Below are positions 31,655 to 62,877 of a DNA stretch of 64,000 bases, piece by piece. The notes under the pieces were generated by a model. That model saw only the letters and a list, made by a program, of their open reading frames with translations, searched no databases and was not told the origin of the DNA. The DNA comes from a virus (taxonomy: Duplodnaviria > Caudoviricetes). The stretch's first letter is position 1. The number at the start of each line of letters is the position of its first letter. Position numbers and translations under genes: made by a program. The stretch spans positions 313-64,312 of the IMG/VR virus record IMGVR_UViG_3300020577_013547; one strand, given 5' to 3'.

Positions 31655-31852
31655 ATGACAGCAAGTACGCCTCACCTACTTCGCATCAAAGCTGAGACAC
31701 TTCTGCGATTGCATCTCCGCAAAGCAACTCCAGCTACGAAGCATGCTCTTCTCCACCGCATTCGAACCCTGGATGCTTGCGTTGCATTACTCGAAGCTGA
31801 AGACGATAAAGGCGCACTCAAGCTGTTGCGCACTATCGTCCCGGTTCGGTGA
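31655..31852 (+). CDS. Hypothetical protein
   Basis: Short ORF in plus-strand operon. Confidence 0.4.
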   Translation: MTASTPHLLRIKAETLLRLHLRKATPATKHALLHRIRTLDACVALLEAEDDKGALKLLRTIVPVR

Positions 31853-31871
31853 ATGGGACATACACTGTTCG

Positions 31872-32267
31872 ATGAACACCTTCCTCCCATATGCATGCTT
31901 CAAGCAGTCGGCTGCATGCCTTGACATGCGCCGCCTTGGCAAACAGCGCGTCGAAGTGCTACAGTTGCTCCAAGGCAGCTTTCCGAACCACCCTGCCTCT
32001 CGCATGTGGCGGGGCTACGAGCACGCGCTGGCTGTCTACGGCACTTACATCTGCGCAGAGTGGCAAAGTCGCGGCTATCGCGATACAGTATTCGACAAGC
32101 TGCAGCCTTACTTGTCCACTGGTTCCATGCCACCCTGGTTCGGTGCTCACCAATTTCACAGCGACTGCAGAGCAAACTTGCTCCGCAAGGATGCTGTGTA
32201 CTACTCCCGTTATGGGTGGCTAGAGCTACCCAAGAAAGGCTACTCATGGCCTACACTGGATGGCTGA
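31872..32267 (+). CDS. Pyrimidine-dimer DNA glycosylase family protein
   Basis: MNTFLPY...LD.RRLGKQRVE...NHPA.RMWRGY. Confidence 0.85.
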   Translation: MNTFLPYACFKQSAACLDMRRLGKQRVEVLQLLQGSFPNHPASRMWRGYEHALAVYGTYICAEWQSRGYRDTVFDKLQPYLSTGSMPPWFGAHQFHSDCRANLLRKDAVYYSRYGWLELPKKGYSWPTLDG

Positions 32268-37614: not shown

Positions 37615-37823
37615 CATGCGAGCTGTTCGCTGAGATTACATTGCGACCCGTCGAGCAAGCTACCCGCGCCGAGCGTACAGCTGCATACAGGCATCACGAG
37701 GCTTGCGAGGCATGCCGCAGGCTGATTGAATCGCGAGAGAAGGCTGAGCTGCCGCCCGATGCATGCAAGCTCATCGACGAGATTGCATTCGCCGATGCTT
37801 TTACAAAGGACCCAGAATGCTGA
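37611..37823 (+). CDS. Hypothetical protein
   Basis: ATGA-coupled ORF. Confidence 0.4.
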   Translation: MTCELFAEITLRPVEQATRAERTAAYRHHEACEACRRLIESREKAELPPDACKLIDEIAFADAFTKDPEC

Positions 37824-38338
37824 CTGAATGCAAGTGCGGTTGCCACAGTGGCGGCATGCTCCACTTCGTTGCCTGCTGTGTGCAGTGCCCTGGATGCGGC
37901 ACGCGCTTCAAGGACAATCCTGCCTACCGCATGCACGTGCGCATCTGCCCACACGAGCCTGCCGCGCTCATGGCCGAGTACAAGGCGTCGCTGAAGCACT
38001 TCACTGCGACTGCACCCACGGCGTTGCTCATCGGTCGCTACCAGCCGTTCCACGACGGTCACCTGGAACTCGCAAGGCAGGCCATCGAGCGCGTCGGCCA
38101 AGTGTGCATTGCAATGCGGCACACGGAGGTCGATGCGAGGAATCCGTTCGACTTCAACCAACGTGGCATCTTCATCATGGCAAAGATGCGGCCACACCTC
38201 GGCAAGTACATCATCGAGCTCGTCCCGAACTTCACGCACGTGTTCTACGGTCGCGACGTCGGGTACAGCATTGAGCAGCTCGATACTGGAGTGCTGAAGC
38301 AAGTCAGCGCCACGCAGATTCGCGAGGCGTTGTTGTGA
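37817..38338 (+). CDS. HIGH-family nucleotidyltransferase (cytidylyltransferase-like)
   Basis: IGRYQPFHDGH, VSATQIR. Confidence 0.8.
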   Translation: MLTECKCGCHSGGMLHFVACCVQCPGCGTRFKDNPAYRMHVRICPHEPAALMAEYKASLKHFTATAPTALLIGRYQPFHDGHLELARQAIERVGQVCIAMRHTEVDARNPFDFNQRGIFIMAKMRPHLGKYIIELVPNFTHVFYGRDVGYSIEQLDTGVLKQVSATQIREALL

Positions 38339-43786: not shown

Positions 43787-45826
43787 ATGCGACTAAACTG
43801 GGCACCCACGAAGCCAGCATTCATCGACTTCGAGACGCAGAGCACCTGTGACTTGAAGAAGCACACGACGCACCAGTACGCGAAGCATCCGAGCACCCAG
43901 ATACTCACGTGCGTCGTAGACGATGGTACTCAGGTGCACCGCTTTGGTCCATACCTGGATTCCAGTGCACGAGAACGTCTCGCTGCCATTGCATCCACTC
44001 ACACGCTCGTCGCACACAATGCGTCCTTCGACAAGGCCATCTGGGATGCCGCTGGCCTTCCAGATGCAGAGTGGTTCGACACTCTTCGGCCTGCTCGCGC
44101 TGCTGGCCTGCCCGGGCAGTTGGACAAGCTCTCCAAGGTGCTCGGCTTCGAGGGCAAAGACTCCAATGGCAAGCGGCTCATCGAGCTTCTGTGCATCGTG
44201 AAGAACGGCAAGGTGCCAGCCATCGGCCCAGCACACAAGATGCTGCTCGACTACAACGAGCGAGACGTCCGCGAACTTCGCAACATCTACAGCGCGGTGC
44301 TTCCATTCGTCGAGCCTGCCGTGATGAGCGTGGATTGGGAGATTAACGAACGAGGCCTGCCTGCCAACCGCGAACTTGCCACTGCAATTCGCGAGATGTA
44401 CACCCAGAACGAAGAGACAGCCCGCAGCGAGTTCGAAAAGCTCGCGCCGGACGTGTCCCCTGGTTCGCCAAAGCAAGTCGTCGAGTGGCTCAACAAGCAA
44501 GGCTTCAAGGTCGACGGCATCAACAAGTTCGTCTGGAAGTCGCTCATTGCAAATCCACACGACTTCTTTGTAGGCGACAGCGACTTCGATGCATCCTTCG
44601 AGCTGATTCGTGATGCACTCGACTTCCGCCGAGACATCGTGCGTGTTGGCAGCGGCAAGGTCGATGCGATGCTGCAGGTAATTGAAGCTGATGGCCGCAT
44701 TCGCGATCAGTTCGTGTACTGGGGCGCGCACACGGGCCGATGGTCTGGTCGCAAGATCCAGCCGCACAACATGCCTCAGTCCATTCAACACTTGCATACT
44801 CTCGACATCGAGCCTACAATGCCTGCCATCAAGGCAGCCTGCGAACATGCGATGGCAGAGTTCAAGCGACTTGGCCAGCCGCGAGTCATTGTTCCTGCCG
44901 ATGCACTTGGCTCGATGCTGCGGCACGTAATCCAGTGCGACAACATGCTCGTAGCAGACTACGGTGCTGTTGAAGCACGGTGCGTCGCATGGCTGGCACG
45001 CTGCGAACGCATGCTGGCGATCTTTCGCGATCCAGGAAAGTCCATCTACTGCGACATGGGCAAGAGCATCTTCGGGCGAGAAATCTCGAAGAAGCATGAC
45101 TATGCCGAGTACAACTTCAGCAAGGCCTTGGTACTCGGCTGCACCTATGGCATGTCCGGTGCCAAGTTCGAGTGGATGTGCAAGACCCGCAACGTCGATA
45201 CTTCTGCACTTGAGCGGCTCGGCATTGACATCAAAGACGCCGTCAAGAAGTTCCGTGAGACGTATCCGGAGCTTCCAGCACTGTGGCGAACGTACCAAGA
45301 GGCAATGCTGACGTGCATCGGCGGCACATCCCTCGAAGCAGGCCGTGTGTTCTTCTGCATGAAGGGCCGAGACATGCACGTAGTGCTTCCAAGCGGCCGG
45401 CCACTCGTCTACCGCAATGCTCGCACCGAAATGATGGTCCCCGGGTATGCGAAGATGTACAACATGCCTGCGGTGCCTGTGCCAACAGTCGTCTACGACA
45501 ACCCTCGCGGCCACAAGTCCTTCATGTACGGCTCAAAGATGTGCGAGAACATCTCGCAAGCCGTGTGCCGCGACCCTCTAGCTGAAACCCTGGTTTCCAG
45601 TGAACAGCTTGGCTTGCGTCCAATCCTCCATGTCCACGACGAGTGCGGCAACGAGGCACCTGATGCGAGGCTCGAAGAAATGTGCGAGATGATGTCCGCA
45701 CCACGCAAGTGGGCGCCAGACTTCCCGCTGCTCGTCGAAGGCTACAGCGGCCCAGTCTGGACCAAGCAGACCAAGAAGTACCGTGAAATCTCCGCAATGA
45801 ACGGAAAGGTGATCCATGGGCATTGA
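43787..45826 (+). CDS. polA: DNA polymerase family A
   Basis: FIDFET exonuclease; HTGRWSG; VADYGAVEAR (A); KALVLGCTYG (B); HVHDE (C). Confidence 0.92.
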   Translation: MRLNWAPTKPAFIDFETQSTCDLKKHTTHQYAKHPSTQILTCVVDDGTQVHRFGPYLDSSARERLAAIASTHTLVAHNASFDKAIWDAAGLPDAEWFDTLRPARAAGLPGQLDKLSKVLGFEGKDSNGKRLIELLCIVKNGKVPAIGPAHKMLLDYNERDVRELRNIYSAVLPFVEPAVMSVDWEINERGLPANRELATAIREMYTQNEETARSEFEKLAPDVSPGSPKQVVEWLNKQGFKVDGINKFVWKSLIANPHDFFVGDSDFDASFELIRDALDFRRDIVRVGSGKVDAMLQVIEADGRIRDQFVYWGAHTGRWSGRKIQPHNMPQSIQHLHTLDIEPTMPAIKAACEHAMAEFKRLGQPRVIVPADALGSMLRHVIQCDNMLVADYGAVEARCVAWLARCERMLAIFRDPGKSIYCDMGKSIFGREISKKHDYAEYNFSKALVLGCTYGMSGAKFEWMCKTRNVDTSALERLGIDIKDAVKKFRETYPELPALWRTYQEAMLTCIGGTSLEAGRVFFCMKGRDMHVVLPSGRPLVYRNARTEMMVPGYAKMYNMPAVPVPTVVYDNPRGHKSFMYGSKMCENISQAVCRDPLAETLVSSEQLGLRPILHVHDECGNEAPDARLEEMCEMMSAPRKWAPDFPLLVEGYSGPVWTKQTKKYREISAMNGKVIHGH

Positions 45827-46064
45827 GCAGTTCATAGCCGCTGTTCGCTCAAAGCTCGGTGAGGCAATCAACGATGCAGATTTGGCAGCATTCTGCGAGC
45901 AGGTGTACTATGCTCGCAAGCGTGACTGTACATTCAGCGATTCTTGGATTAGCAGAGTAGCCAACAAATACGAAGCTCACATTCGCAGAGGTTTTGCAGC
46001 CAGGCGTCAAGGCGATGCGGAGCGTAGCGATCGTCGCCGCGGCAAGTATCATAGGAGCAGATAA
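45816..46064 (+). CDS. Hypothetical protein
   Basis: Coupled ORF. Confidence 0.4.
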   Translation: MGIEQFIAAVRSKLGEAINDADLAAFCEQVYYARKRDCTFSDSWISRVANKYEAHIRRGFAARRQGDAERSDRRRGKYHRSR

Positions 46065-47086
46065 TGCGAGTAGTTCTACAACCATTCTTCAGCCAGCAGG
46101 ACAAGCAGAGCTGCCGCTTTTTGCTAGAGAGCGACAGCGGTGTCAAGCTGTACAAGTACATCGCAGAGCAGATGGCTGCTCGCGGCGATGACGTGACGTT
46201 CGTGCTGCCATCACGCAACCAGTGTGCGGACTCGCTGAAGTGGCCAGATGCAATCAAGCTTCGCTATGCTCCGCATCTGGAAGTGTGCAACCTCCGCCGG
46301 CGAGTGCAGTGGGACACAGAGTGGCTGGAGCGCATAACTCGCGACTGTGACCTGTTCCTCACGACGCACGAGTTCCTCAGCATCCCTCTGCGCGTGATCC
46401 GGCCGAAGCTTCGTATCGTCATGGAGTGCGGCATCCGGCCGACGACCGCATGGCCGGAGACAGAAGCCTTGTTCCCAATCGCACAGCGGGCTGCAACTGC
46501 TGTGCACTGCAACAGCTCTACACTCGCATCCGAGTGTGCCAATCCGCGCACCTTCGTATGGCCGTTCGCATTTCACGAGAAGGCCTACTCTCTGCGCGGC
46601 GGCGAGCGGAGCATCGATGTACTCTTTAACAGCCGCTGCAGCTCCACGAACTACTCGCATCATTGCGAGTTCATCGAGCAGATGTGGAGCAGCGGCCTTC
46701 GCATCCGAATGACCGATCCTACGAACTACCTGCGCAGTACAGGCTATGCACCTGGATGGACAGGCAATATGCCTGCAGGTCGCGGCGCCTACGAATCGCT
46801 CTTAGCACAGTCGCGAGTCGTCGTCGGCCTCACGGACAATGGCTACGGTGGCTATGCATTCCGAGAAGCGATGGCCGCAGGCTGCTGTCCAGTGGCACTG
46901 GATGTTCCCGAGTACCGCGAGCTTCTCGGCGACTGGCCATACTACTGCACCCTGGACAACATTGCCGACGTCGTACATCGTGCATTGGCAGATGGTGCGC
47001 CGGCATACCCTGTGACCGGGCTACTCGCCCAGTCCAGCTACCAAGAGGCGTGGAGGCAGGCCGAGAAGGACCTGGCAACACTGTGA
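46064..47086 (+). CDS. GT-B fold glycosyltransferase (GT4-like)
   Basis: YGGYAFREAMAAGCCPV acceptor-end motif. Confidence 0.75.
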   Translation: MRVVLQPFFSQQDKQSCRFLLESDSGVKLYKYIAEQMAARGDDVTFVLPSRNQCADSLKWPDAIKLRYAPHLEVCNLRRRVQWDTEWLERITRDCDLFLTTHEFLSIPLRVIRPKLRIVMECGIRPTTAWPETEALFPIAQRAATAVHCNSSTLASECANPRTFVWPFAFHEKAYSLRGGERSIDVLFNSRCSSTNYSHHCEFIEQMWSSGLRIRMTDPTNYLRSTGYAPGWTGNMPAGRGAYESLLAQSRVVVGLTDNGYGGYAFREAMAAGCCPVALDVPEYRELLGDWPYYCTLDNIADVVHRALADGAPAYPVTGLLAQSSYQEAWRQAEKDLATL

Positions 47087-47985
47087 ACAAGACGCTCAAC
47101 TACTGGCGGCACCGCAAGTTGATCCGCTGGCACATGACTCAGTGGTGTAACTACAAGTGCAGCTATTGCCCGCAAGAGCACAGCCGCAAGCAGATCTTCC
47201 GCGGTGCGCCAGGCCACTGGGCCGACAACCACGACGTGGATACGTGGCTCGCGCACTTCGAGGAGCACTTCCTCGACTACGACTGTAGCTTCATCATGAC
47301 TGGCGGCGAGCCAATGATGGACAAGGTCAACATGGAGCCGTTGCTGCGCAACCTCGTATGGCGGGACTGGGTCGACAGCATCAAGATCGACACGAACTGC
47401 AGCTGGACGCCGAGTGGCTGGTCCATCGACAAAAGCAAGATCACGTTCCTGTGCTCATTCCACCCAGAGCACACGGACGAGGACACGTTCTTCAACAAGC
47501 TGCAAATGATCCAGAGTGCTGGCTGGACAATCGGCATCGTGAACCTCGTCGTGCTTCCCGACCGCTTTGACATGCTCGACCGCATGCGAAAGCGAGCCGC
47601 GAACTACGGCCTAGCTTTCAGTGCTGTCCCGCTCGACGGGCAACTGTCGCTGTACTCACGCGACCAGGTGCAGGCACTGCAGGCGCACATTCCAGCAATC
47701 GACTGGGAGATTCGCACTGGTGGCGATCCGATCGGCCGCAACTGCCTGCATCCGGCAGTGACATACAAGCTGTACCCGAGCGGAGAGCTCGAAGTCGGCT
47801 GCCACGAGCACCTGCGAGGCAACATCGCAGACGAGGTGCTACCCTCGCTTCCGTATGCATACACGCCGTGCCCGAAGCACTCGTGCATGTGTACTGAAAA
47901 ATACAGCTTCCTTGAGGACATGGACGTCAACCACGGCACACCTCAGCCAATGACTCGATACGCGGAGCGAATTTCGCTCTTGTAA
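47083..47985 (+). CDS. Radical SAM protein
   Basis: CNYKCSYC, TGGEP, DTN; GTG start overlapping upstream TGA. Confidence 0.85.
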   Translation: MNKTLNYWRHRKLIRWHMTQWCNYKCSYCPQEHSRKQIFRGAPGHWADNHDVDTWLAHFEEHFLDYDCSFIMTGGEPMMDKVNMEPLLRNLVWRDWVDSIKIDTNCSWTPSGWSIDKSKITFLCSFHPEHTDEDTFFNKLQMIQSAGWTIGIVNLVVLPDRFDMLDRMRKRAANYGLAFSAVPLDGQLSLYSRDQVQALQAHIPAIDWEIRTGGDPIGRNCLHPAVTYKLYPSGELEVGCHEHLRGNIADEVLPSLPYAYTPCPKHSCMCTEKYSFLEDMDVNHGTPQPMTRYAERISLL

Positions 47986-48047
47986 GCACAGGCATAGGCC
48001 CTGGTACTTACGATCCAGAGACCGTTTCTACGAACCTGGGACGACTG

Positions 48048-48788
48048 ATGAGCATCAATGCGAGCGAGCTGTTCCGAGCCATGTGGTCCACCGTGAGCCT
48101 GAACCGCCCACGCAAGGCTGATTCGCCTGCACAGCCCGGCGACACCGTCGAGGCCATTCCAGGGAACTCCTTCTACCTGCGGTCCATCGACCACAACATC
48201 GTGGACTGCCGCAAGCTTAACGAGCGCTGGGCATGGGCTAATGTGCTGCACTTCTTTAGCGGAAGTGAGGAAGCAGAGATGCTCGAGCACTACAACCCGC
48301 TCGCACGGCGCTTCGTGCACAACGGCAAGTGGACTGGTGCCTACGGCGCAATCTGCATGCCACAGCTCGCGAAGTGTGCAGAGTTGCTGCGTGCTTCGCC
48401 ACACTCTCGGCGTGCGATCGTGAGCCTCGGCGGTTACTGCGACGAAGCCGATGCAAATCGGCCATCGTGCATCAGCTTCATGCACTTCCTGTCCACGACG
48501 GAAGGTTTGCATCTGCACGTCTACCAGCGATCACTCAACCTCTGGGGCGTCATGCCTTACGACTGCATCCTGCTGACGAACGTGCTCCACTGGATGTGCA
48601 AACAGACTGGGCAACTCGCCGGAGGACTTACATGGTCCATCGGATCGCTCCACGTTCCGCTACCGCTTCCAGTGCCTGAGTACAGCGGCATTCGGAACCG
48701 TGGCTTACTCATCGATGTACCGCCCAACCCACTCGACGTACTTCGCAAGGAGGCTTCCAATGCTCGTCTTGTCCCGCAAACTGGGTGA
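48048..48788 (+). CDS. Thymidylate-synthase-fold enzyme (dCMP hydroxymethylase-like)
   Basis: SRRAI, PSC (catalytic Cys), YQRS, PYD with Asp at specificity position. Confidence 0.75.
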   Translation: MSINASELFRAMWSTVSLNRPRKADSPAQPGDTVEAIPGNSFYLRSIDHNIVDCRKLNERWAWANVLHFFSGSEEAEMLEHYNPLARRFVHNGKWTGAYGAICMPQLAKCAELLRASPHSRRAIVSLGGYCDEADANRPSCISFMHFLSTTEGLHLHVYQRSLNLWGVMPYDCILLTNVLHWMCKQTGQLAGGLTWSIGSLHVPLPLPVPEYSGIRNRGLLIDVPPNPLDVLRKEASNARLVPQTG

Positions 48789-48981
48789 GAAGATCCGCAT
48801 CGGTGACAGCATCGAAATCACCGTGACCAGCATCGAACGCGGCAAAATCCGACTCGGAATCGAGGCCCCACGTGACATCCTCATCATACGATCTGAGCTC
48901 ATTGCAGGTGGAGCACCGCCAGTGGCTGGCGATGATGTACCCCGGCCAGTCGCCAAAGTTCCCGGCAGCGGGAATGCTTGA
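48760..48981 (+). CDS. csrA: Carbon storage regulator CsrA
   Basis: MLVLSRK.GE.I.IGD.IEITV...IRLGIEAP.DI.I.RSEL; AAGGAGG RBS. Confidence 0.92.
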   Translation: MLVLSRKLGEKIRIGDSIEITVTSIERGKIRLGIEAPRDILIIRSELIAGGAPPVAGDDVPRPVAKVPGSGNA

Positions 48982-49447
48982 GGAAGCTGGCGAGCTGATG
49001 CACGCGCTGCTCAAGAACCAGGGGCAGCACGTGTGGGGCAGCGAAGAGCGATACGCCAATGCCGATTGGCATGCATCAATCGTCGATGCAATCGGCGACT
49101 GTGCGATCTATGCCTGCTCGCTCTGCAATGCACTGGGCTGGGACTTTGCAACGCTCACAGCCCATGCCTGGAACTTTGTTGCGAAGCCGGAGCAAGCATT
49201 CGACTCAGTCGCGAAGCTCGTGCAGATTGCAACGTTCATAGTACAGGACCCAGAGAACAACGTCTGGACTCTCGCCTACTTGCGACAGCTCGGAAGCATT
49301 GCCGCAAACTGGAATCTCGACATCCGGAGCTGCATCGAGGTAACCTGGAGCAAGGTCAAGGAGCGTAAGCGTGCCAGTACTAGCAATCGAGGGACCGGAC
49401 AGGAGCGGCAAGACGACACTGTTTCAAGCGCTGCAAAGGACTGTTAG
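48872..49447 (+). CDS. MazG-like nucleotide pyrophosphohydrolase
   Basis: EEAGEL...DAIGDC; start uncertain. Confidence 0.7.
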   Translation: MTSSSYDLSSLQVEHRQWLAMMYPGQSPKFPAAGMLEEAGELMHALLKNQGQHVWGSEERYANADWHASIVDAIGDCAIYACSLCNALGWDFATLTAHAWNFVAKPEQAFDSVAKLVQIATFIVQDPENNVWTLAYLRQLGSIAANWNLDIRSCIEVTWSKVKERKRASTSNRGTGQERQDDTVSSAAKDC

Positions 49448-49868
49448 CGCCTGCTTCGTTCCAGGTCTGCCACTGCATCCATCAGCGATGCCTGTGATGC
49501 ATCACGTAGAGCAGCGCCAAGCACACCTGTGGCGCTACCTCTACGACCCGCAACGCCTGTACGTCTGCGACCGGCACTTCAGCGTGTCGGCTCCAGTGTA
49601 CGATCGGCTGTACTCGCGGCCAGTGCTGGACATCAGTTACTGGCTTCGCGAGGTGTTCGTCGTGTACCTCGATGTCCCAGAGGCAGAATTGCAGCGGCGG
49701 CACAAAGCCACCAACGATGCTGGTGGCTCAGAGCATGCCAGCCGCGTTCGGCAACTGTACCACGAGCATATTCGCAACTTCGAGCACGCTCGACTCGACG
49801 GCACAAAGCCGACAATTGAGCTCTGCGAGCTCGTTTCTGTACTCGCGAGGAGCATCGCAAATGCATGA
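49371..49868 (+). CDS. Deoxynucleoside monophosphate kinase (dTMP-kinase-like)
   Basis: IEGPDRSGKTT P-loop, CDRH. Confidence 0.8.
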   Translation: MPVLAIEGPDRSGKTTLFQALQRTVSACFVPGLPLHPSAMPVMHHVEQRQAHLWRYLYDPQRLYVCDRHFSVSAPVYDRLYSRPVLDISYWLREVFVVYLDVPEAELQRRHKATNDAGGSEHASRVRQLYHEHIRNFEHARLDGTKPTIELCELVSVLARSIANA

Positions 49869-50283
49869 GCTGTTCCGCCGCCACCATGACTGGTGGCTCA
49901 AGCATCGCAGCAGCGATACTGCACGCCACTGCCTGCTCGGCATGCTCAAGGCTGTCCGCAACTTCGTGCACCCACTGCTCAAGCCTCCTGCCATCGGCGT
50001 GGACAATCGTCCCGCTGCTGTCGAGGCCATCGGCGACATGCTGATGTACTGCTGGTCGCTGCACCATGTACTTGGTGAGCCGTGGCAAGAGTGGAAGCAA
50101 TCGTATGCACAAGCTAACACCGACAAGATACTCGGTTGTATGCTTATCAGCATCGGCAATCAGTTGGCCGCAGGCAAGAGCGATGAGTGGGCTTTGCTAG
50201 AGTACATCGCGGTGCTCGCTCACACCTGCTGCATCCCGCTCGAAGAAGCCGCTGCAATCTCCATCGAGAAGCTCCCATGCTGA
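49861..50283 (+). CDS. Second MazG-like paralog (degenerate)
   Basis: EAIGDMLMY resembles neighbour's DAIGDCAIY. Confidence 0.45.
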   Translation: MHELFRRHHDWWLKHRSSDTARHCLLGMLKAVRNFVHPLLKPPAIGVDNRPAAVEAIGDMLMYCWSLHHVLGEPWQEWKQSYAQANTDKILGCMLISIGNQLAAGKSDEWALLEYIAVLAHTCCIPLEEAAAISIEKLPC

Positions 50284-50915
50284 AGATCGTCGCACACACT
50301 CGCAGTGGCACCCACTACCTCGCTGCCCTGCTCCATGCGAACATGGACACTGGAGCAAAGGAATACAGCGAGTTGGATTACAGCCATTCGCGAGTGCCGA
50401 CTCTCGGCGACCAAATCCTGCCATACATCTGCATCTGGCGGCAGTGCTTGCCGACGATGCTCTCCATCTGGCGCAGCCGCGAGCACCTTGGCATTGCATC
50501 CAGTGTGACATTCAGCGACATGCTTCGCACGGACATGTCCTCAATGCAGCGTAGCAGTGTCGGCCTAGCGACATACAATGGCACTCGCGACGACCGGGTG
50601 TGCGCGCCTCGCGAGTTCAAAGGCATGCTCCTGGAACGCTGGTACAAGCGGACTGTGTACTTCGCAAACCACGCATTCGTCGCCATCCGCTACGACGATG
50701 CAGTCGCTCGGCCATTCGGCGTCGTGCAGCGCGTCGCACAGGCATACAAGAAGCTGTTGCGAAAGCCGTTTGCACCCATAGAGTACAAAGTCGGCTGGCA
50801 ACCAGTGAATTACGACGAGCCGCACGTTACTCCCGACGACTACGAACTCATTGAGAGGTACGAGAAGGCATGCCTCGCAAACTTACACTTGTCCGTCACG
50901 GCCCCACTGTCCTGA
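50277..50915 (+). CDS. Sulfotransferase-like P-loop protein
   Basis: HTRSGTHYL PAPS-loop, IWR, IRYDD. Confidence 0.6.
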   Translation: MLKIVAHTRSGTHYLAALLHANMDTGAKEYSELDYSHSRVPTLGDQILPYICIWRQCLPTMLSIWRSREHLGIASSVTFSDMLRTDMSSMQRSSVGLATYNGTRDDRVCAPREFKGMLLERWYKRTVYFANHAFVAIRYDDAVARPFGVVQRVAQAYKKLLRKPFAPIEYKVGWQPVNYDEPHVTPDDYELIERYEKACLANLHLSVTAPLS

Positions 50916-51388
50916 ACGAGGCTGGTCGCCTCCGCGGCTGGATGGACCCGCCGCTCAGCAAAGCAGGCTACGAGGTGGCTCGCAACTTGGCACTGCTCAA
51001 GTACACAGGCATCGTGTACTCGAGCGACTTGTGCCGAGCGACGCAGACGGCGCAGTACATCACTCGCTTCTACGAGGCGACTCCAGCCCTTCGCCCCTGG
51101 AACGTAGGCATCTATGCTGGCCAGCCAGCGGCCATCGTGCATCCGAGGCTCGTCGAGTACCAACAGAAGCACCCCAATGTCGCTGTGCCGTTCGGCGAAC
51201 CGTGGAACGACTTCGTGAAGCGACTCATCGGCTTCGCATCCAGGTGCAAAGACGGCGACGTACTCGTCACGCACTACCGCTGCTGCAAGTTGCTTCAAGC
51301 GTGGACTGGGAGCGAAGTCGATTGGGACGTGATGCTCCGCGACGACGTAGAAACAGCGAGTGTGATGCATGTTACACTGGACTCGTAG
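50870..51388 (+). CDS. Histidine phosphatase (phosphoglycerate mutase family)
   Basis: LVRHG.T..N...G..D.PL, SSDL.RA.QTA. Confidence 0.85.
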   Translation: MPRKLTLVRHGPTVLNEAGRLRGWMDPPLSKAGYEVARNLALLKYTGIVYSSDLCRATQTAQYITRFYEATPALRPWNVGIYAGQPAAIVHPRLVEYQQKHPNVAVPFGEPWNDFVKRLIGFASRCKDGDVLVTHYRCCKLLQAWTGSEVDWDVMLRDDVETASVMHVTLDS

Positions 51389-52043
51389 CGAAGTTGCGAA
51401 GTACTACCCGGACATGTTGCTCGTGAAGCGAGCTGATGAGACATTCGGGCCGTGTGCTACCACTCCAGGGAAGCTCGTCGACATCGTCGGCATGCTTCGG
51501 TATTTGGAAGTGCTGCCAACCGACTACGTGCTGGACCTCGGCGCACACGTAGGCAGCTACGCAGTGGCATGCATCCATGAAGGTGCGAAGGTTCGCGCTG
51601 TCGAGGCACATCCAGACAACTATTGCATCTTGCATGCAAACCTTAGCACCCAGTGTGAATGCATTCATGCAGCCGTGACAGCCGCTGGCGGCACTGCAGA
51701 GCTGCAAGTCTGCTCGACGTACAGCCACAGCATCGTGAAGCGGAAGCGGAGGTTTGGGCGCGGAGCCGCGAGCATCCAGGTACCAGCCGTAACGCTGCCG
51801 TCACTGCTTGAAGGCATCACAGTACTCAAGTGCGACGTTGAGGGCGCCGAATACGAACTGGAGCTGGAGAAGCATGTGGCTGGACTTCGTGCACTTACAG
51901 TCGAGTTCCATCGGCACTCAGGCGACTGGAAGGCGGACGCCTGGGCCATCTGCGATCGTATTCGCGACGCTGGATTCGTTGAGACACGTAGGCCGCTCTT
52001 CAACAGCCAGTGGAACAACTATGGCGTCTGGCATCGTCCGTAG
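51369..52043 (+). CDS. FkbM-family methyltransferase
   Basis: VLDLGAHVG, VEAHPDN, LKCDVEGAE. Confidence 0.85.
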   Translation: MLHWTRSEVAKYYPDMLLVKRADETFGPCATTPGKLVDIVGMLRYLEVLPTDYVLDLGAHVGSYAVACIHEGAKVRAVEAHPDNYCILHANLSTQCECIHAAVTAAGGTAELQVCSTYSHSIVKRKRRFGRGAASIQVPAVTLPSLLEGITVLKCDVEGAEYELELEKHVAGLRALTVEFHRHSGDWKADAWAICDRIRDAGFVETRRPLFNSQWNNYGVWHRP

Positions 52044-52286: not shown

Positions 52287-52314
52287 TTGACACTCTCCGA
52301 ACTCATGATATACT
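52287..52314 (+). promoter_or_regulatory. Strong early sigma70 promoter
   Basis: TTGACA-16-TATACT with extended TG. Confidence 0.8.
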
Positions 52315-56441: not shown

Positions 56442-56762
56442 ATGCCTACAATCACGTCGAAGCGCTGTCCGCGGTGCAAGAGCACCAAGCAACTCGAAGT
56501 GTCATTCGCGCAGCTCCTGCAGTACGAGCGAGGAGCTCAAATCCAGGATGCGTTTCCGCACCTCAGTGCTGACGACCGCGAGCGGTTCATCACTGGGTAC
56601 TGTCCCAAGTGCTGGAACAGCATCTTCCACAATGTCGATGCGAGCGGCGAGTACTGCTCCTGCGAACAGGATGCAGTGACATGCCAGGAGTGCGGCAAGC
56701 GCGTCTGCGGCACCCTGGTTACCTGGGTTGACGGCAAAGGAAACGTCTGCAATGATCACTAA
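56442..56762 (+). CDS. Cys-rich (Zn-binding) early protein
   Basis: CPRC, CPKC, CSC, CQEC pairs; GGAGG RBS. Confidence 0.65.
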   Translation: MPTITSKRCPRCKSTKQLEVSFAQLLQYERGAQIQDAFPHLSADDRERFITGYCPKCWNSIFHNVDASGEYCSCEQDAVTCQECGKRVCGTLVTWVDGKGNVCNDH

Positions 56763-57123
56763 GCAATTCGTGCTGGCTGGACGCGCGAAGCTTACGATCC
56801 AGCTCCCAGATGGCACTCACCGGACTTACAAGATCGTGCGTGCCAAGAAGACGGGAAAGTACTGGTGTCACCTGCTCACGGCACCAGACACGTACACGTT
56901 CTTCGGCGGCCTAGACGTCTCCACTGGAGCTGTCTCAGGCACTGCCTTCGCTCACCGACTTCTAAGCCGAGTGCTCCAGTGCATCTGGCGTGGCGACGAA
57001 GCATACAAGCCACACGGCTACAACGTATATCACAGTGGGTGCTGCGGCCGATGTGGCCGCGAGCTCACAGTTCCCGCGTCGATACTCTCAGGCATTGGGC
57101 CTGAGTGCTCGAAGTACGTGTAA
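56752..57123 (+). CDS. DUF6011-type Zn-finger protein
   Basis: CGRCGRELTVPASILSGIGPEC. Confidence 0.75.
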   Translation: MITKQFVLAGRAKLTIQLPDGTHRTYKIVRAKKTGKYWCHLLTAPDTYTFFGGLDVSTGAVSGTAFAHRLLSRVLQCIWRGDEAYKPHGYNVYHSGCCGRCGRELTVPASILSGIGPECSKYV

Positions 57124-61382: not shown

Positions 61383-62236
61383 TCCTCGGCGTCGGAGGCC
61401 AAGATGGATCGTACCTCGCCGAGGCATTGCTTCGGCGAGGCCACGACATCTACGGCACCGTGCGGCGCAACAGCGTCGGCTACCCTCGCGTGCCTGCGGG
61501 TGTGCGAGTGCTCAAGGCTGACCTCACGGACTTCGAGAGTGTGAGGCAGGCATACATGGATTCTATGCCGCATGCCGTGTTCAACGAGGCAGATCAGGAC
61601 AACGTCGACTGGAGCATTGCAACTCCGCAGCTGTCCGTCGATGTGACGTTCGGCGCCGTACTCAAGCTGCTGGACTTGTGCAAGAGCATCAAACTCTTCC
61701 AGCCAATCAGCGCTACGATATTCGGCGACAATCCAATGCCCACTCTGCTGTCTCCCCTGGATCCAGGGTCGCCGTATGCGATTGCGAAGGCAGCAGTGCT
61801 GTTGGCATGCCGCCATTACCGCAAGCTCGGAGCACACATCTGCTGCCCGATCATGTTCAACCACGACAGTCCACGCAGGGGTGCAGAGTACTTGCTTCAT
61901 CGCATCTGCAGTGGCAAGCGAATTCAGCTCTCCGATCCAGGGTTTCGTGTAGACATCGGGCATGCTCGCGACTACATGGAGCTCGCCTGCGACCTGTACG
62001 AGCATAACGTCGACGTGTTGGTTGGCACTGGTGCAACACACTCGCTCCGCGAACTCGCAGAGATCGCAGAAGCTGACGTCGAGTGGACATACACACAGTA
62101 CAGACCAGGACAAGGTGGTGCTGGCATGCTGTGCAGCACTCTCGGCCTCAAGCAACTCGGCCTAGAGCCACCGAGCCACGACATTCGGCCGCTTATCCAG
62201 GAGCTGAAGTGCAAGTACTCGACCACGGCTACGTGA
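61370..62236 (+). CDS. GDP-mannose 4,6-dehydratase-like SDR
   Basis: ILGVGGQDGSYLA, SPYAIAK, MFNHDSPRRG. Confidence 0.85.
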   Translation: MRALILGVGGQDGSYLAEALLRRGHDIYGTVRRNSVGYPRVPAGVRVLKADLTDFESVRQAYMDSMPHAVFNEADQDNVDWSIATPQLSVDVTFGAVLKLLDLCKSIKLFQPISATIFGDNPMPTLLSPLDPGSPYAIAKAAVLLACRHYRKLGAHICCPIMFNHDSPRRGAEYLLHRICSGKRIQLSDPGFRVDIGHARDYMELACDLYEHNVDVLVGTGATHSLRELAEIAEADVEWTYTQYRPGQGGAGMLCSTLGLKQLGLEPPSHDIRPLIQELKCKYSTTAT

Positions 62237-62877
62237 AGTACATCGAGCACTGGGGCAGCGATGAGCGGATCATCGAGGCCGCTCGCATGTCCACAGACAA
62301 GGGCTTCCTCGGGTGGCCTGGCGATGAGAAGCTCCTTGCCTACCTGTACAAGAATGCCCACCACACGCCATTCGAGATGGCTGGCATAGTGATCGAAGTC
62401 CAGGCACCCATCTTCGTGTTCCGCGAGTGGCATCGGCATCGCACCCAGAGCTACAACGAACTCAGCGCACGCTACACGCCGCTTCCAGACGTGAACTACA
62501 TGCCTACAGTTGAGCGGTGCATGGAGGTTCACGGCACGAACAGGCAAGCCGGTGCTGTGAAGGGCAGCGACGAAGTCAATCCACTGGTTGCTGAAGCATG
62601 GCTCAATGCGCTTCACGAGCACTATGCACGCGCAGAAGCTCTGTACCAGCGCGGCCTGCAGGCAGGCCTCCCGAAGGAAGTAGTGCGAATCGCAGTTCCA
62701 GTCGGCCGGTACAGCCGCATGCGTGCTTCTGCCAACCTCCGCAACTGGCTCGCCTTCCTCACACTCCGCATGGACAAGAAAGCTCAGTGGGAGATTCGGC
62801 AGTATGCCGATGCTGTAGGCGAGAATATCGCTCGACTCTTTCCTCGTACCTGGGAGCTGTTCTGTGCAAATCGCTGA
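62209..62877 (+). CDS. thyX: Flavin-dependent thymidylate synthase
   Basis: AARMS, HHTPFE, RHRTQSYNELSARY; GTG start with AGGAG RBS. Confidence 0.92.
   Translation: MQVLDHGYVKYIEHWGSDERIIEAARMSTDKGFLGWPGDEKLLAYLYKNAHHTPFEMAGIVIEVQAPIFVFREWHRHRTQSYNELSARYTPLPDVNYMPTVERCMEVHGTNRQAGAVKGSDEVNPLVAEAWLNALHEHYARAEALYQRGLQAGLPKEVVRIAVPVGRYSRMRASANLRNWLAFLTLRMDKKAQWEIRQYADAVGENIARLFPRTWELFCANR

Follow-up and report, generated by a model that had tools for sequence, protein, structure and literature searches.

What does a tailed phage make with a thymidylate synthase (TS) homolog, a glycosyltransferase and a run of possible tailoring enzymes encoded directly behind its DNA polymerase, when a true thymidylate synthase is encoded elsewhere in its genome? 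The question is posed by IMG/VR virus record IMGVR_UViG_3300020577_013547 (Duplodnaviria; Caudoviricetes), a linear record of 64,312 bases with a CheckV completeness estimate of 82%, of which we analysed bases 313-64312 (64,000 nucleotides; hereafter the window, numbered from its own first base). A sequence-only reading had named nine genes at 46064-52043 on the plus strand after PolA, namely a GT-B transferase, a radical S-adenosylmethionine (SAM) enzyme, the TS homolog, two MazG-like proteins, a deoxynucleoside monophosphate (dNMP) kinase, a sulfotransferase-like protein, a histidine phosphatase and an FkbM methyltransferase, together with ThyX elsewhere. All were found, and the cytosine-directed DNA hypermodification cluster with a glycosyltransferase that had been seen in them is supported by an Asp at the position of ThyA Asn177, by the GT-B fold of the transferase and by conserved gene linkage. 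We consider it probable that this block replaces the cytosine of the phage DNA with glycosylated 5-hydroxycytosine.

The argument turns on the TS-fold enzyme. A phmmer comparison with solved ThyA structures sets its Cys on the catalytic Cys, QRSLN on QRSAD and PYD on PFN, bearing out the earlier observation of Asp at the specificity position (PYD) and of QRSLN in place of QRSxD. The key residues are Cys141, Asn164 (ThyA Asp169), Asp172 (ThyA Asn177) and Arg138 (ThyA Leu143); in folate-dependent thymidylate synthases, ThyA Asp169 binds the pterin. We aligned reference genes with the window enzyme and compared them at ThyA positions Leu143, Asp169 and Asn177. In that order, the window enzyme has Arg, Asn and Asp; RB69 gp48 and the RL38JI-like N34 gp135 have Glu, Asn and Asp; T4 gp42, the 'pyrimidine hmase' of MW202657 and the Enterococcus VFW enzyme (encoded beside a beta-glucosyltransferase) have Asp at all three; td enzymes have Leu, Asp and Asn; and a Microbacterium phage enzyme has Leu, Asp and Asp. 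The corresponding motif, read in one alignment, is MRSQN in RB69 gp48 and N34 gp135, MRSND in T4 gp42, the 'pyrimidine hmase' and the VFW enzyme, and QRSxD...PFN in td. The window enzyme thus carries neither the Asn177 and Asp169 of a deoxythymidine monophosphate (dTMP) synthase, as it reads PYD and QRSLN, nor the T4-type Asp169 with an acidic residue at the Leu143 position, as it has Asn164 and Arg138. Among the sequences gathered for comparison, gene 61 of Microbacterium phage Quenya (L030:2968-3903), annotated as a thymidylate synthase, has Leu143, Asp169 and an Asp at the Asn177 position, the residue pattern expected of a deoxycytidine monophosphate (dCMP) methyltransferase, and adjoins a dihydrofolate reductase gene.

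The pair N177D and D169N marks the flavin-dependent 5-hydroxy-dCMP synthases (Lee et al., NAR 2026, PMC13326640). RB69 gp48 and DLP3 gp80 are TS homologs that produce 5-hydroxy-dCMP with flavin and O2; the change of Asp169 to Asn is the single active-site change common to all such synthases (RB69, DLP3, RL38JI) and was termed diagnostic, and a further nine D169N homologs of diverse kinds, IMG/VR sequences among them, all produced 5-hydroxy-dC (PMC13326640). Glu at the Leu143 position was reported for RB69 and DLP3 and not named diagnostic (PMC13326640). Because the window enzyme bears this double signature, and hydroxymethylases keep Asp169, the likely intermediate is 5-hydroxy-dC and not 5-hydroxymethyl-dC. 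The hydroxymethylase product of the sequence-only reading is therefore probably not the right one: Asn164 with Asp172 is the published signature of a 5-hydroxy-dCMP synthase, and enzymes of the T4 gp42 type retain Asp169.

The enzyme belongs to a family of its own. Across 33 TS homologs, all metagenomic, Cys141, the Gln-Arg-Ser-Leu run, Tyr171-Asp172, Glu35, Tyr99-Gly100 and Arg121-Arg122 are invariant, as are (in ThyA numbering) the equivalents of Glu58, Tyr94, Arg166, Ser167 and the Arg-Arg pair. An exhaustive profile search gave 56 cluster representatives at E <= 1e-30, after which scores fell steeply. Asp at the 169 position was found in 0 of 82 family sequences, and Asp at the 177 position in every full-length sequence among them. 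The AlphaFold2 (AF2) model of the enzyme has a mean confidence score (pLDDT) of 91.9, and in VIA-align its best match was MilA (Z 23.4-23.7, root-mean-square deviation [rmsd] 2.6, 238 residues), followed by the HY126 dCMP hydroxylase AfhB (9iqc, Z 22.9, rmsd 2.1, 206 residues; 9iqu, Z 22.2); both outranked every ThyA chain (Z <= 21.2). The list of structural matches did not include the T4 hydroxymethylase, an absence that is no evidence of difference.

Could the enzyme be a folate-dependent dCMP hydroxymethylase as in T4 after all, with glycosylated 5-hydroxymethylcytosine in the DNA? We think this unlikely, although it fares best among the alternatives. An Asp at the Asn177 position and an intact catalytic Cys would suit it, hydroxymethylase-type sequences predominate in the outgroup that lies closest by profile score, and a set of dCTPase, kinase and GT-B transferase fits the T4 scheme as well, but T4 gp42 and other hydroxymethylase-type enzymes keep the Asp169 that the family lacks throughout, and the Leu143 position is neither Asp nor Glu. 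The window enzyme is at most 27% identical to any cultured-phage enzyme, and its blastp matches to 5-hydroxycytosine-type enzymes (N34 gp135, 6e-12 over 224 residues; RB69 gp48, 7e-9) are far better than that to T4 gp42 (0.004). The top structural match, MilA, is a CMP hydroxymethylase, yet it is also the top structural match of the proven hydroxylases DLP3 gp80 and RB69 gp48 (PMC13326640), so that this match does not discriminate.

We hold it about equally unlikely that the TS clade performs some other C5 chemistry on dCMP, with another cofactor or together with the radical SAM enzyme, and makes a new type of base. In a maximum-likelihood tree the family is an independent clade (support 100/99) on a long stem, its Asp169 position varies, its Leu143 position is mostly Arg, and it keeps YQRS as in ThyA, whereas all cytosine-type references read MRS. 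The radical SAM gene, however, is missing from many relatives that keep the core and is thus not an obligate partner of the TS homolog; the core holds no other cofactor-related gene; and every tested D169N homolog, diverse IMG/VR ones included, yielded 5-hydroxy-dC (PMC13326640).

The partners of the TS homolog bear on what becomes of its product. A GT-B transferase had been claimed with no support from sequence libraries, and we likewise obtained no Pfam, PHROG or NCBIfam match, no tblastn match in cultured phages, and from a profile search of the PDB only a match at E 0.023 (the GlgA C-terminal region). The claim is borne out by structure. The AF2 model (pLDDT 95.6) gave Foldseek matches that, among those listed, were all GT-B enzymes (E <= ~3e-8; TMq up to 0.73, for 3c4q, 6eji and 7fg9). 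Heading them were 7qsg, 3mbo, 7fg9/8x3q, 3c4q, 5zes and 2gej, and T4 alpha-glucosyltransferase (1ya6) ranked 36th; the neighbours 7qsg, 3mbo, 7fg9/8x3q, 3c4q, 5zes/5ze7, 6kih and 2gej are also those given for the DNA transferases of DLP3, RB69 and RL38J1 (PMC13326640). All 44 homologs of the transferase are metagenomic, and one has a precomputed PF13439 match.

In the first MazG-like protein, EExxE (E37 E38 xx E41) and DxxGD (D72 xxx D76) are invariant in six relatives, and its gene adjoins the TS homolog in every relative. The window copy has a C-terminal extension of ~25 aa that is absent in relatives and shares 77 nt, in a different reading frame, with the kinase gene. The kinase has the P-loop GPDRSGKTT and the DRH motif (as CDRH), with Pfam and NCBIfam scores under the cut-offs, and hhalign relates its family to the RB69 cluster kinase RB69p045 (95.5%, E 1.4e-8). 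Neither MazG copy gave an informative match when its sequence was searched against the PDB. We make no claim of orthology between the transferase, MazG or kinase and the Pootjesviridae genes, as hhalign against N34 gp136, gp134 and gp137, respectively, gave no support.

We examined synteny by tblastn of the window proteins on 14 mostly short metagenomic loci and the matching IMG/VR contig, which is also the basis of the counts of accessory genes below. Wherever flanking DNA sufficed, PolA was followed by the TS homolog, MazG, GT-B transferase and kinase in varying order, and in loci with little DNA the gene order seen was consistent with this core. That the core recurs beside PolA wherever a relative offers sufficient flanking sequence shows that the cluster is not due to chance. 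The PolA proteins of these relatives are 47-57% identical to that of the window and have the same downstream module.

Such linkage also bears on the idea that DNA is the target of the nucleotide steps alone and that the transferase and tailoring enzymes act elsewhere, be it on a small molecule, the host envelope or proteins of the virion. In its favour, the phage encodes a separate pathway for sugars and another GT4-like protein ~7 kb away, the transferase shows no detectable sequence-level homology to known DNA glycosyltransferases, and phages are known whose sugar pathways have different targets. We nevertheless hold this the least likely of the alternatives, for the transferase is locked among the TS homolog, MazG and kinase in every relative despite the shuffled order, the same adjacency of kinase, transferase and synthase occurs in RB69, DLP3 and RL38JI with a glycosylated base (the DLP3 transferases being confirmed experimentally; PMC13326640), and attachment is to a free 5-hydroxyl in each case described.

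Several observations nonetheless weigh against glycosylated 5-hydroxycytosine. Position 169 is Asn in ~58% of the TS family and otherwise Ser, His, Ala, Met and others, where the published 5-hydroxy-dCMP synthases consistently have Asn (PMC13326640), and position 143 is mostly Arg or Lys (Arg138 in the window enzyme, not Glu). In the tree this separate, deep TS clade meets the td clade, the RB69/N34 clade and a hydroxymethylase in one polytomy with long branches, and the sequences next to the family in profile score mostly bear residues of the hydroxymethylase type. The transferase and MazG families show no homology to their N34 counterparts that hhalign could detect, the sulfotransferase assignment comes from sub-threshold matches, and that the accessory enzymes act on a sugar of the DNA is something we infer. 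The phage itself is uncultivated and known here from sequence alone. Features of the TS clade such as these point, in our view, to a folate site that was probably lost independently.

For glycosylated 5-hydroxycytosine we envisage the following steps. The first MazG-like enzyme would hydrolyse dCTP to dCMP, keeping plain C out of the DNA and feeding the synthase. Cys141 of the TS-fold enzyme would attack C6 of dCMP, with Asp172 selecting cytosine, and the enzyme would hydroxylate C5 to give 5-hydroxy-dCMP; we suppose that flavin and O2 are used because the folate-anchoring Asp169 is lacking. The thymidylate-kinase-like kinase would form the diphosphate, a host nucleoside diphosphate kinase and the phage PolA would put the base into DNA, and the GT-B transferase would add a sugar to the 5-hydroxyl there. 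The radical SAM enzyme, FkbM and the sulfotransferase-like protein paired with the histidine phosphatase would tailor that sugar or its activated donor, and genes for a C-methyl/amino sugar that the phage itself carries at the ends of its contig may provide the donor. What we observe is sequence, fold and synteny, and from these we infer each enzymatic activity, incorporation prior to glycosylation and the action of the accessory enzymes on the sugar.

Glycosylated 5-hydroxycytosine systems are documented for Escherichia phage RB69 (gp45-gp55, gp3), Acinetobacter phage DLP3 (gp76-83), E. coli phage HY126 (Afh genes) and Rhizobium phage RL38JI (PMC13326640; reportedly also He et al., Nat Chem Biol 2026, and Mahler et al., Cell Host Microbe 2025). 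The sugar attached at the 5-hydroxyl is arabinose in RB69 and DLP3 and hexoses in RL38JI (PMC13326640). The adjacent trio of kinase, transferase and synthase recurs in these clusters, with p045, p046:47 and p048, close to the polymerase gene, in RB69, gp78, gp79 and gp80 in DLP3, genes 214, 215 and 216 in RL38J1, and gp135, gp136 and gp137 in N34, where a nucleoside triphosphate (NTP) pyrophosphatase gene stands ahead of the synthase. The window shares with these systems a TS fold with N177D and D169N, a thymidylate-kinase-like kinase, a GT-B transferase, an all-alpha dCTPase-type pyrophosphatase, a place next to the DNA polymerase gene and a true thymidylate synthase elsewhere in the genome. 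It differs in its separate deep TS clade, in the Arg at Leu143 and in the variable Asp169 position of its family, and its block is without the arabinose-5-phosphate isomerase, kinase/uridylyltransferase, HAD phosphatase and U32 genes of the published systems, having instead the radical SAM, sulfotransferase-like, histidine phosphatase, FkbM and degenerate MazG paralog genes. The window represents a PolA phage of ~64-78 kb that belongs to neither the Straboviridae nor the Pootjesviridae.

The glucosyl-5-hydroxymethylcytosine pathway of T4 (gp42, gp56, gp1 and the alpha- and beta-glucosyltransferases) follows the same logic, from dCTPase through a TS-fold enzyme on dCMP and a dNMP kinase to incorporation and, after replication, GT-B glycosylation, and its genes too lie beside the polymerase. 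T4 gp42, unlike the window enzyme, keeps Asp169 and uses methylene-tetrahydrofolate, its sugar is linked through a CH2-O bridge, and the T4 genome lacks genes for a radical SAM enzyme, a sulfotransferase-like protein, FkbM and a histidine phosphatase. MilA, the CMP 5-hydroxymethylase of mildiomycin biosynthesis (PDB 5jnh, 5b6d, 5b6e), is a cytosine-specific TS fold like the window enzyme, but acts on a ribonucleotide in an antibiotic pathway rather than a DNA pathway and has Asp at the Asn177 and Leu143 positions (PMC13326640). The core of the window cluster belongs to a system published in 2025-2026, and the pathway as a whole is therefore no longer undescribed, contrary to what had been proposed; what stands of that proposal is the accessory set, for the radical SAM enzyme, the sulfotransferase-like protein with its phosphatase, FkbM and the degenerate MazG were not found in the published systems or the cultured phages searched. 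The separate TS clade and the setting in a mid-sized PolA phage were likewise found in no paper or cultured phage searched, a comparison that leaves out the nine D169N homologs of PMC13326640.

The features of the window are collected in Table 1.

Table 1. Features of the replication and modification region of the window and of other regions discussed, with predicted or candidate roles
Feature	Position	Strand	Match or remark
Pyrimidine-dimer DNA glycosylase homolog	31743-32267		PF03013, 61 bits; early region
191-aa protein	37763-38338		C2H2-like zinc-finger match and cytidylyltransferase-like nucleotidyltransferase segment
Family A DNA polymerase PolA	43787..45826	+	PF00476, 50 bits; modification genes directly downstream, same operon
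82-aa open reading frame, no assigned function	45816..46064	+	No Pfam, PHROG or NCBIfam match; between PolA and transferase
GT-B (GT4-like, retaining type) glycosyltransferase, 340 aa; candidate first DNA 5-hydroxycytosine glycosyltransferase	46064..47086	+	Fold
Radical SAM enzyme, variable accessory; candidate sugar-tailoring enzyme	47083..47985	+	PF04055, 25.3 bits (cut-off 29.5); phrog_13987
TS-fold enzyme, predicted 5-hydroxy-dCMP synthase	48048..48788	+	PF00303, 44.6 bits
MazG-like all-alpha NTP pyrophosphatase, predicted dCTPase	48872..49447	+	phrog_1992, 7e-10; phrog_715, 1e-6
Thymidylate-kinase-like dNMP kinase, predicted to phosphorylate 5-hydroxy-dCMP	49371..49868	+	phrog_761, 2.6e-14
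Second MazG-like paralog, 140 aa	49861..50283	+	hhalign to first MazG family 97.4%, E 1.1e-11; no library match
Sulfotransferase-like P-loop protein, variable accessory	50277..50915	+	PF13469, 23.9 bits (cut-off 27); PF00685, 18.5 bits (cut-off 22)
Histidine phosphatase (branch 1), RHG motif, variable accessory	50870..51388	+	PF00300 (His_Phos_1), 77.6 bits
FkbM-family SAM methyltransferase, variable accessory; candidate sugar O-methyltransferase	51369..52043	+	PF05050, 37 bits; TIGR01444, 63 bits
Sigma-70-like promoter	52287-52314		TTGACA, 16 nt, TATACT, upstream TG
DUF6011-containing protein	56728-57123		Downstream of module
ThyX, flavin-dependent thymidylate synthase	62083..62877	+	PF02511, 140 bits

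The accessory genes vary from locus to locus. Among the relatives, the radical SAM enzyme was seen only in L008, L011, L012 and L016, and FkbM in L011, L014 and L016, at other positions; L002 has a different class I methyltransferase (PF13578) in the slot between PolA and the TS homolog, and L006 an NDP-sugar epimerase/dehydratase of the short-chain dehydrogenase/reductase (SDR) type between transferase and TS homolog. The sulfotransferase-like gene occurs in L008, and together with the degenerate MazG and the histidine phosphatase in L013, L015 and the window. Four relatives have an HNH endonuclease gene after the module (L002:12823-13413, L006:3420-4112, L011:9658-10185, L015:10103-11038), and this may mark a recombination-prone boundary.

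The radical SAM enzyme starts at a GTG that overlaps the stop codon of the transferase gene as GTGA. Its C21xxxC25xxC28 and GGE (TGGEP) motifs are invariant, as are five C-terminal Cys, which are a probable auxiliary Fe-S cluster site. The best NCBIfam match was to the STM4011 family (69.6 bits, under the cut-off), and tblastn found no match in cultured phages. Bacterial homologs (31% identity; Bryobacterales, Nevskia and another gammaproteobacterium) are longer, at ~470-507 aa, and adjoin fusion proteins of ~1,240 aa that join polysaccharide pyruvyltransferase, GT1 and GT2. The fusion genes (L033:2316-5957; L036:8687-12412 and L035:8185-11904, both on the minus strand) occur in Acidobacteriota and Gammaproteobacteria, and the bacterial glycan locus of radical SAM enzyme and glycosyltransferase fusion appears to be conserved and uncharacterised.

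The second MazG-like protein, which has no library match, was confirmed as a MazG relative by hhalign, in line with the two copies first reported. Its EExxE metal motif is replaced by K-x-x-R-N and its second motif kept; it is probably not a standard pyrophosphatase, to go by these residues, and may bind nucleotides without catalysis. Its gene is always accompanied by those for the sulfotransferase-like protein and the histidine phosphatase (in the window, at L013:4335-4781 and at L015:8720-9223).

For the sulfotransferase-like protein the earlier call remains weak. R9-x-G-T-H and R55...S63 are invariant in four relatives, and PF00685 is present in 17-18% of the members of its look-alike clusters in the Atlas, but both of its own Pfam matches are under the cut-offs. 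The R-x-G-T-H motif and the R...S spacing resemble the two motifs, for 5'-phosphosulfate and 3'-phosphate, that bind 3'-phosphoadenosine 5'-phosphosulfate. No homolog was found in cultured phages by tblastn. The histidine phosphatase gene adjoins the sulfotransferase-like gene in the window, L013 and L015, the two always occurring together where the length of DNA suffices; its nearest NCBIfam family is alpha-ribazole phosphatase (55 bits, under the cut-off), and we speculate that it clears 3'-phosphoadenosine 5'-phosphate (PAP), the by-product of sulfation. FkbM-type enzymes are usually hydroxyl O-methyltransferases. A literature search on STM4011 and on sulfotransferases in DNA hypermodification found nothing useful. 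The SDR gene in the L006 module, the usual chemistry of FkbM and the bacterial relatives of the radical SAM enzyme beside glycan proteins together suggest that the accessory enzymes tailor a sugar.

Sugar-nucleotide genes occupy both ends of the contig (59471-64000 and 1-1347 of the window, and bases 1-297 of the record), interleaved with thyX. They encode a UDP-glucose dehydrogenase-like protein, a sugar C-methyltransferase, an SDR of the 4,6-dehydratase type, a GT4-like protein, a DegT aminotransferase and the C-terminal fragment of a class I methyltransferase, and L002 likewise has the C-methyltransferase, 7 kb beyond the module. From this pathway the DNA transferase could obtain its donor sugar. 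That the contig closes to a circle through the GT4-like gene was considered and rejected, because the first 297 bases of the record encode the end of a class I methyltransferase and the junction does not join. Nor was any paralogy detectable between this second GT4-like gene and the transferase of the cluster.

The block is part of a larger transcriptional order. GC content in the window is 57-60%, and genes run on the minus strand to ~30 kb and on the plus strand beyond. Ligase, helicase, PD-(D/E)XK nuclease and a primase-polymerase/D5 protein precede PolA, and the block at 45816-52043 is the tail of this replication operon. Directly 3' of it, ahead of a region of small genes, lies a near-consensus sigma-70-like promoter, which makes the end coordinate 52043 a natural operon boundary. 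A blastn search with the whole modification block found no match in cultured phages, to whose proteins PolA is at most 30% identical. ThyX is present after the module in L015 as well; its presence in the window means that thymine is not the replaced base, and supports the view that ThyX supplies dTMP and makes the TS homolog redundant for dTMP synthesis. Elsewhere the window encodes the pyrimidine-dimer DNA glycosylase homolog and the 191-aa protein of Table 1, the latter not conserved in the relatives examined, and the DUF6011-containing protein downstream of the module is kept in an IMG/VR relative (L002:16871-17473).

If the accessory genes are read together with the core, the base might be a 5-O-glycosyl-cytosine bearing a sugar that FkbM O-methylates, the sulfotransferase-like protein sulfates (the phosphatase perhaps removing PAP) and/or the radical SAM enzyme rearranges, on a donor that is possibly a C-methyl amino sugar made by the phage, the TS-fold hydroxylase clade having lost the folate site independently of the RB69 type. 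We offer this fuller picture tentatively, and think it less likely than not; if true, it would be the first sulfated or methyl-sugar DNA base.

The same core logic is thus met in an unrelated, uncultivated lineage of PolA phages from soil-type metagenomes, on a separate clade of the TS fold. With Ser, His, Ala and Met at the Asp169 position, this family tests, as a natural experiment, how strictly the D169N rule applies. The discoverers of glycosylated 5-hydroxycytosine predicted 'glycodiverse' derivatives, and the swappable tailoring genes of this lineage (radical SAM, methyltransferases, SDR, and sulfotransferase-like protein with phosphatase) are candidates for new DNA sugar decorations. 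Bases of this kind affect the evasion of restriction and CRISPR, and could serve as enzyme tools.

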